Source: a phage. From it: DNA of 59,621 bases. The notes beneath the pieces are model-generated. The model saw only the letters and a list, made by a program, of their open reading frames with translations, had not been told where the DNA came from and made no database searches. The position numbers and the translations under genes were made by a program. Positions 58,480 to 59,621 of this stretch are shown here, piece after piece (within the stretch, counting starts at the first letter, position 1; every line of letters begins with the position of its first letter). The stretch lies in sequence record PZ049713.1; one strand, 5' to 3'.

Positions 58480-58818
58480 ATGGCCAAGCACAAATACGAC
58501 GTGGTAGCCACGGTCGGAAAGTACGAGAAGAACGGCGAAACCAAGTACATCAGCCGGAAGGTCGGCGCGGTCATCCAGACCGACAAGGGCTTCCGCATGA
58601 AGATGGACGCCTTCTTCAATCCGGCCGGCTGCAAGGTCGACGAAGACGGATCTATCTGGCTTGCCCTTTTTGAGCCGCGCGACGATCAGCAGCAAGGGCA
58701 GCCGCAGCAACAGCGTCAAGGCCAGCCACAACGCAGCCAGCAGGCGGCGCCTCCAGCCTATGATGACGATGTGCCATTCGCCAACCCCTACTGCGGCGCC
58801 CGCTCGCTGCTGATCTGA
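58480..58818 (+). CDS. Hypothetical protein with Gln-rich C-terminus
   Basis: 112 aa; SD AAGGAG; its 3' end is the sequence duplicated at 7468-7603. Confidence 0.45.
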   Translation: MAKHKYDVVATVGKYEKNGETKYISRKVGAVIQTDKGFRMKMDAFFNPAGCKVDEDGSIWLALFEPRDDQQQGQPQQQRQGQPQRSQQAAPPAYDDDVPFANPYCGARSLLI

Positions 58819-59621
58819 TCCACCCCGGGCGCCCAGCGCGCCCTCCTCCCCGGTACACACCCATGCTCATAGACAACCATGCCATAGCGCAGGGCGAGGC
58901 TCTGCGCGCGCAAATTGACGCGGCCACGGCTGCATTCCTGAACGCTGGCGGAAAGATCCAGCTGCTGCCCGACAGCATCGGCAAGCCGATAGAGATCAAG
59001 CCTGCCGTCTTCAACAACGCCGGAAACGCGGAGGCGGACCAGCGCAGCCGCAAGCGTGGCGCCCGCAACTCTGCCGTATCGAACAGCCTCCCTCTGCGCA
59101 AGCGCGGCACTCCGCAGGCCAAGCAGAACGACGTGCTGCGGCAGGAGTGGCCATGAGATTCCCCGACGTGCTCGACGCCATCCGTCACGCGGCGTACCGG
59201 GCGGAAATCACTGGCAAGCCGTGGGGCGTCTACGCGCTTGCTCAATACATCGCTGCGCCGCTTGGTGATCTGAGCGACGCGGCACTGCTGGAGGTGTGCC
59301 AGCCATGAGCTGCATCGTGACGCTCTATTCAATCGACAACCGAGTGTCGCGGCCAGTAGTTCGCGGCACTGAGCCTCGGCGCCCTTCCGACTGGAACGCC
59401 AGCGCGTGGTTCGTGCTGCCCAACGGCGAGAAGCACACCCACAGCGCGATGGCCCGTGGTGAAACAGTCACTGGCCTAGTCGCCTACATGGGCGCCCTGA
59501 TCGACAGCCTGATAGCTGACCACGGCAACCAAGTAGCCAGCGCCGGCTGGACGGCCACAACGCACGGGAGACGGAAGAAATGAGCCCACTGGCCGGCAGG
59601 AGGCTCAAGCGGCGCACGAAA
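58684..59621 (+). repeat. Direct repeat of 7468-8400 (start of a second genome copy; circular permutation or tandem copy)
   Basis: ORFs 58863-59156, 59056-59268 and 59296-59583 encode proteins identical to 7647-7940, 7840-8052 and 8080-8367; divergence (7-nt insertion) appears only from ~59606. Confidence 0.9.

Follow-up and report, generated by a model that had tools for sequence, protein, structure and literature searches.

The sequence record PZ049713.1, a stretch of 59,621 nucleotides of phage DNA (called the window below, at its full length), ends with bases that it also carries some 51 kb upstream, and raises the question of what kind of molecule was sequenced and how its extra length arose. 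An earlier note, made from the sequence alone, had suggested a concatemer, a tandem prophage or a circular assembly rather than a single integrated prophage, and had reported neither a host flank nor a recognisable phage attachment site (attP). Our analysis makes it very probable that long reads from the circular or circularly permuted genome of a temperate siphovirus (51,216 bp) were assembled into this contig, which has a wrap of 0.94 kb at its right end, a fold-back chimera at its left end and an attP directed at the gene of an ABC-F family ATPase. Four features are seen directly: the anatomy of the joint at which the left end folds back, the degradation of the left arm, the intact attP, and the way in which relatives run normally across the wrap point (58683|58684). 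The sequencing platform was probably nanopore.

The genome unit and its direct repeat

The direct repeat that the earlier note placed between 58684-59621 and 7468-8400 is real and far beyond chance. In a self-BLAST comparison, 58684-59607 (plus strand) matches 7468-8391 over 924 bp at 99.9% identity, with a single mismatch (at 8389), no gaps and an E-value of 0; the last 14 nucleotides of the window (59608-59621) are a ragged end with no match to the first copy on sequence comparison. The period of the repeat, from 7468 to 58684, is 51,216 bp, in agreement with the ~51.2 kb proposed previously, and corresponds to the length of one genome unit (7468-58683) of a temperate siphovirus resembling Pseudomonas phage PS-1. 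Related proviral and viral contigs measure 44-50 kb. The wrap junction falls within a conserved gene of 112 amino acids (aa) and is ordinary internal sequence in the relatives: PS-1 is collinear with the window across it, as is the IMG/VR contig L003, which is 94.9% identical over window positions 57121-59156. An assembly path that went once round the circle and 938 nucleotides further (58684-59621) would generate the direct repeat, and the left end would derive from a fold-back molecule or read.

A near-perfect direct repeat at the right end of the window could also be taken for a physical terminal redundancy of 938 bp, the direct terminal repeats of virion DNA with fixed ends, but this explanation is very unlikely. 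The left copy is internal, beginning at 7468 and not at the start of the window; the repeat is bounded on the left by the fold-back joint, which lies inside a gene, and on the right by the ragged window end, and the relatives are collinear through it. T7-like fixed direct terminal repeats were rejected on these grounds. In addition, the large terminase (TerL), encoded at 34692-35978 (minus strand; Pfam, PHROG-type profile and homology matches), is of the Terminase_6 type (Terminase_6N/6C), and its characterised relatives package their DNA by headful (PMC10783031). TerL is 84% identical to that of phiPSA1, ~50% to Kagunavirus and ~39% to Jerseyvirus, the phages for which headful packaging has been shown (PMC10783031). 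By analogy, the phage described here may also package by headful, a mode compatible with the assembly of its genome as a circle. The papers examined on phiPSA1 do not give its packaging mode, and a PDB search with TerL was uninformative (best E-value 0.005).

The earlier note was right that the window holds more than one genome length, but it overlooked a degraded inverted duplicate at the left end. This inverted arm makes up 7,467 of the 8,405 bases in excess of one genome unit and the wrap the remainder, so most of the excess comes from a fold-back chimera and not from the genome wrap. The direct repeat starts exactly at 7468 because the inverted arm, attached at the fold-back joint, occupies all of the sequence further left; the genome does not end at this position.

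The fold-back joint and the inverted arm

Positions 1-15083 form a self-inverted repeat that runs off position 1, with 98.1% identity in self-BLAST. The left arm (1-7467, minus strand), delimited by self-BLAST and an alignment of the two arms, is a degraded reverse-complement copy of 7600-15083 that is cut by the start of the window. The right arm (7600-15083, plus strand), in which the reading frames are intact, is the authentic copy and contains early genes, xis, int, attP, the lysis genes and the start of a low-GC open reading frame (ORF). Between the arms lie three elements, all on the plus strand: a left 10-mer, GATCAGCAGC (7468-7477), which forms the fold-back joint and holds the first base of the direct repeat, a loop of 112 nt (7478-7589), and a right 10-mer, GCTGCTGATC (7590-7599), both 10-mers being read directly from the sequence as the two halves of an inverted repeat. 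The loop is native, asymmetric and non-palindromic; it is identical to 58694-58805, L003 is collinear with the window here, and together with both 10-mers it recurs unchanged at 58684-58815. The 10-mers encode the DQQQ and SLLI* residues of the 112-aa gene, which spans the wrap point at 58480-58818 (plus strand) and was assigned by homology and PHROG as a homologue of PS-1 gp11 (phrog_18187). Since the genome unit holds 23 pairs of 10-bp inverted repeats spaced by at most 300 bp, the GATCAGCAGC/GCTGCTGATC pair is not a dedicated site. The fold-back joint had no exact match among 241 million metagenome records, and L002 and L003, the only IMG/VR contigs with adjoining sequence, both carry the normal joint.

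As a separate observation on the product of this small gene, the phrog_18187 protein has a Gln/Pro-rich linker and an acidic motif, DDD(I/V)PF (...DDDVPF in the window), similar to that of single-stranded DNA-binding proteins (SSB). The motif is internal, being followed in the window, L002 and L003 by a conserved extension of 12 residues, A[DN]PY[RC]G.RSLLI*.

The two arms are 98.50% identical when aligned, with 46 substitutions between them. Indel events number 61 (56 of 1 nt, four of 2 nt and one of 3 nt), and 60 of these break the reading frame; relative to the right arm, the left lacks 42 bases and has 25 extra. Several comparisons identify the right arm as the authentic one. Homologues of PS-1 Int, Xis, gp07, gp10 and gp78 are found as single in-frame matches on the right arm and are truncated or split between frames on the left, and the alignments of the relatives L003, L004 and L005 contain 0-5 gaps to the right arm versus 6-22 to the left. 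Outgroup phages side with the right arm at 67 of 67 polarisable differences and with the left at none, in two non-overlapping blocks, and the third copy of this sequence (58684-59607) is 99.9% identical to the right-hand sequence and 96.7% to the left arm. The left-arm substitutions are strand-asymmetric (A>G 25 versus T>C 5, p = 3e-4), as expected of single-strand read error and not of duplex divergence. Compared with PS-1, large genes in the rest of the unit show no interruptions; the poor sequence quality is confined to the left arm, which suggests that this arm had much lower read support than the rest of the genome.

How the joint formed can be proposed from its anatomy. A strand copied leftwards through 15083-7600 would reach GCTGCTGATC at 7590-7599, where its 3' end could anneal anew to GATCAGCAGC (7468-7477), the inverted 10-mer at a distance of 112 nt, and be extended along the opposite strand. 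The product would be the reverse complement of the arm followed by a 10-mer, the loop, the other 10-mer and the arm, and a left arm with few supporting reads would retain its single-strand read errors. Chimeras formed in multiple displacement amplification (MDA) are inverted in more than 85% of cases; most are intramolecular, with priming at complementary stretches of 2-21 nt (Lasken & Stockwell 2007, PMC1855051). Fold-back reads account for ~0.55-0.6% of Oxford Nanopore Technologies (ONT) reads of genomic DNA, probably originating from library preparation (Heinz, Meyerson & Li 2026, PMC12870357). The fold-back in the window may date from library preparation or amplification, or go back to a molecule that was present, though rare, in vivo. 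An origin from a missed adapter or from an unsplit duplex read was rejected, because either would be expected to leave a symmetric joint at a fragment end, whereas the joint seen here is asymmetric and includes 112 nt of native sequence.

Palindromes also form in vivo via short inverted repeats, by template switching or by snap-back after a break, in E. coli, yeast and the ribosomal DNA (rDNA) of Tetrahymena. It is conceivable, but unlikely, that the fold-back is a genuine in vivo giant palindrome (an inverted dimer), left behind by the replication or recombination of the phage when a strand switched template or a resected end snapped back at the 10-bp repeat, and then caught by long-read sequencing. 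A native asymmetric loop between short inverted homologies is a signature of polymerase or recombination activity and not of a missed adapter, and the phage recombination genes coding for a Rad52-type annealing protein and Sipho_Gp157 adjoin the site. However, in vitro processes leave the same signature (PMC1855051, PMC12870357), and the many errors of the left arm imply a minority species. The joint also truncates a conserved gene, no relative has it, and the genome is rich in 10-bp inverted repeats of a comparable kind. Whether formed in vitro or in vivo, the molecule was, judging from the error load, a rare one, and the palindrome structure is ordinary and largely artefactual.

A long read round a covalently closed hairpin would also yield the reverse complement of an arm followed by the arm itself, as would be the case for a linear plasmid-prophage with N15-like hairpin telomeres. 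This origin is improbable in the extreme. The centre of the palindrome is a 112-nt asymmetric coding stretch and not a perfect tel palindrome, the relatives read straight through it, and an integrase, a functional-looking attP and integrated relatives are present. No protelomerase was found among the annotated ORFs, some small ORFs lying outside the scan. The N15-like hairpin telomere was rejected, being effectively refuted by the asymmetric centre.

Some points weigh against the interpretation of the window as a circular genome with a fold-back chimera at its left end. The left-arm errors are unevenly distributed, dense opposite 7600-9600 and 13600-14100 and sparse between, so that partial polishing must be assumed. 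The low read support of the left arm is deduced from its error load only, and this arm, being cut at position 1, may have a greater length than is seen. Lastly, the suggestion of headful packaging was drawn from a TerL identity of only ~39%.

For any further use, the sequence should be trimmed to the circle of 51,216 bp (7468-58683). Left in place, 1-7467 would inflate the genome size by 16% and be annotated as ~ten surplus pseudogenes with frameshifts, among them a broken duplicate of the integrase, and with a further copy of the attachment core (1360-1393, minus strand, by sequence match). Standard direct-terminal-repeat detectors would miss this wrap, given the inverted arm before the first copy, and a circular genome with a fold-back arm at one end escapes a test that looks at terminal repeats only.

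The attachment site and the ABC-F target gene

In the ~200 bp that follow the integrase gene (13653-13851), the earlier note recognised neither a tRNA fragment nor a core repeat, and it reported no recognisable attP. The absence of a tRNA stands, that of a core and an attP does not. ARAGORN detected no tRNA in the window or beside the integrase in 12 loci, and a tRNA-type attachment site was therefore rejected. No tRNA fragment is seen in this stretch because the target is the 5' end of an ABC-F gene and not a tRNA. A core is, however, readily recognisable: the 34-bp sequence CTTGATTTCTACCGCCAACATCACCATGCAGTTC at 13686-13719 (plus strand), defined by comparison of attP, attL, attR and attB, corresponds to the end of the 5' untranslated region (UTR) and the codons M-Q-F of the host ABC-F gene. 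Matching attL, attR and empty attB counterparts of this core were recovered from other sequences.

Upstream of the core lie the genes of an excisionase homologue (12283-12630, plus strand; 43% identity to PS-1 Xis over 116 aa) and of a tyrosine integrase with an arm-binding N-terminal domain (12471-13652, plus strand; PF00589, E = 1.5e-21, and PF12167, E = 1.1e-17). The P arm carries a pair of TGCCCCAA repeats (13628-13646, plus strand), a motif conserved in relatives, and a motif scan revealed a pair of TGCCCCRA repeats in the P' arm (13798-13817, plus strand). Four of the six TGCCCCRA matches in the window belong to these same-strand pairs (at 13628/13639 and 13798/13810), which flank the core and are conserved in relatives. 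They are candidate arm-type sites for the PF12167 domain of the integrase.

Integrases 71-98% identical to that of the window occur in Stutzerimonas and Pseudomonas chromosomes, the closest (97-98% aa identity) being those of Stutzerimonas stutzeri KOS6 and of a contig binned as a 'Coriobacteriia' metagenome-assembled genome (MAG). In all ten integrase-bearing chromosomal or MAG contigs (L005-L015), homology to the window ends at 13703-13719: the shared sequence finishes with ...CACCGCCAACATCACCATGCAGTTC, and the chromosomes continue as a gene starting MQFGAKPLFENVSVKF...GLIGANGCGKST. This gene matches the NCBIfam equivalog NF011646, ABC-F family ATPase, with 1002 bits against a cut-off of 762, and we take it to be of the YbiT type. 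The contigs L006-L015 provide the attR junction. No second att junction was found within the 10-kb flanks of the chromosomal loci, and in L005 the junction is masked by Ns; the att junctions were drawn from IMG/VR contigs for attL and from metagenome contigs for attB. The core and the lysis-side arm are present in six IMG/VR contigs. Four of these have an intact attP (P-core-P') as in the window and, together with L004, make five independent phage contigs with this arrangement. In L019, host intergenic DNA takes the place of the integrase arm, giving attL. In L017 (IMGVR_UViG_3300011887_000025), the ~420 nt to the left of the core consist of the 3' end of a different tyrosine-recombinase pseudogene, with an in-frame stop, which abuts the core and points to a second integrative element in tandem at the ABC-F site beside the prophage; L017 was likewise counted as attL.

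A scan for the start of the ABC-F gene yielded 120 metagenome contigs (L022-L141). Three of them (L097, L135 and L054) are empty attB sites in which the host arm of the L019 type (97-98% identity, up to 482 bp) is followed by the core and an intact gene; in a fourth empty attB, L060, the upstream region is native and the core matches attP at 34/34 positions. The core of L019 has host-type variants up to ...AAT, and the crossover thus probably takes place within the last ~15 bp of the core, ATCACCATGCAGTTC. Jointly with our reading of the contig as a whole, we regard it as highly likely that the 34-bp attP core recombines with the 5' end of the host ABC-F ATPase gene in a lambda-type integration. 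The end of the 5' UTR and the codons M-Q-F carried by the phage would restore the start of the ABC-F gene after integration. It is also possible, though not likely, that integration, by swapping the native region upstream of the gene for phage DNA, re-wires the expression of this translation-associated ATPase in lysogens.

An integrase homologue or remnant (33-81% identity) lies directly upstream of the ABC-F gene, in the same orientation, in 18 of the 96 metagenome contigs with at least 1.3 kb of upstream sequence, making the ABC-F start a recurrent integration hot spot. No description of such a hot spot was found in the searchable literature, and a literature search for ybiT as a phage integration site gave nothing relevant. 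The present comparison narrows the att site of the phage group to 34 bp at a conserved ABC-F gene start, a usable landmark for prophages and islands in Pseudomonadaceae, with an upstream integrase at ~1 in 5 of the sampled copies. Across the metagenome loci (L022-L141), ~34 bp including the ABC-F start codon are strongly conserved in many taxa.

An intact attP is also held between the copies of tandem lysogens, and close relatives of the phage are integrated in Stutzerimonas chromosomes; the window could accordingly be chromosomal DNA with tandem or rearranged prophages, for instance from a polylysogen with an inverted partial copy. We consider this highly improbable. The window contains no attL, no attR and no host gene, the inverted joint lies inside an early gene at a chance 10-mer and not at the att core, and the left-arm differences are frame-breaking 1-nt indels with a strand bias, not evolutionary divergence. 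A tandem prophage is further disfavoured by what lies to the left of 7468: in place of the end of another copy, there is the inverted arm, with its joint inside a gene. An unintegrated form, in contrast, holds because the attP (P-core-P') is intact and the sequence is continuous across 58683|58684. Among the forms envisaged in the earlier note, a circular assembly or a concatemer is thus retained and a tandem prophage is not. Most likely, the phage was captured unintegrated, as a circular replicative form, a concatemer or circularly permuted virion DNA.

The phage and its comparison with known systems

The absence of a host flank and of bacterial genes reported earlier was borne out: neither a host gene nor a host junction was found in the window, and both of its ends are phage sequence. 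The gene content is of phage type throughout and includes xis, int, an Rz-like spanin, tail fibre, tape measure, portal protein (33349-34860, minus strand, by profile matches) and large terminase genes, the replication genes of an O-like initiator, a DnaC-like loader and a DnaB helicase, and a CI-like repressor. Several HNH or homing endonucleases are encoded besides the Rad52-type annealing protein and Sipho_Gp157. Gene calls based on GC content at third codon positions (GC3) provide a rough map only and are prone to strand errors. The nearest phage is Pseudomonas phage PS-1 (NC_029066), with 84-88% DNA identity over 16-34% of two query segments, and the phage is most likely a 51.2-kb temperate siphovirus of the Stutzerimonas/Pseudomonas group. 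Megablast gave no match in the plasmid collection, nor did exact-protein searches with the integrase and the major tail protein give any. The 18.6-kb contig L004 (JBFHJN010000049.1) bears the label of a Coriobacteriia MAG but shares 93-94% identity with this phage and carries an intact attP; it is almost certainly mis-binned.

Other features of the genome unit lie outside the joint and the attachment site. Genes resembling HNH, endonuclease VII or homing endonucleases are scattered in the head and packaging modules at 31204-32184, 36471-37205 and 39581-40816 (all minus strand), one of the three being inserted between head genes, and PS-1 has similar insertions. The low-GC ORF at 14986-16146 (plus strand), between the lysis genes and the tail fibre, has a GC content of 47.6% versus 60.1% for the unit and encodes a polytopic membrane protein of 386 aa with ~9-10 hydrophobic segments. 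Its product has no Pfam, PHROG or NCBIfam match and looks like that of an acquired 'moron', possibly a surface-polysaccharide-modifying or polymerase-type protein. In the early region, 54390-54469 (plus strand) matches the Proteo-phage-1 small RNA (sRNA; RF03044) of Rfam with 70.2 bits versus a gathering score of 42.

The wrap resembles that of circular or permuted phage assemblies, in which the contig likewise ends by repeating, at ~100% identity, an internal 'start', and in relatives its junction is ordinary sequence. Headful packaging, the mode of characterised phages with related TerL proteins, may be a further common trait. The wrap differs in that the overlap is not found at both termini, the first copy being preceded by a 7.5-kb inverted arm. 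The fold-back chimeras of long-read sequencing and MDA share with the left end of the window two adjoining segments of one locus on opposite strands (PMC12870357; PMC1855051), a joint at a short inverted complementarity (10 nt, inside the reported 2-21 nt), and an intramolecular origin with a small native spacer, no adapter and a minority arm of low quality, for which the error load serves as proxy; the difference is that the chimera described here was carried into a contig and was not seen in single reads. The geometry is also identical to that of in vivo palindromes formed at short inverted repeats, a large palindrome centred on a short inverted repeat with an asymmetric spacer, but the error load of the window points to a rare or single molecule. 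With PS-1, the phage shares its syntenic order (int-xis-early genes ... lysis-tail-head-terminase) and 84-88% DNA identity over parts of the genome, whereas only ~16-34% of the DNA aligns and the integrases are 44% identical. Its attachment module is organised like those of PS-1 and of lambda-type Int/Xis/attP systems, with attP between int and the lysis genes, an arm-binding integrase and repeats flanking the core, but it is aimed at the 5' end of an ABC-F gene, to which the phage supplies the first three codons, and not at a tRNA.

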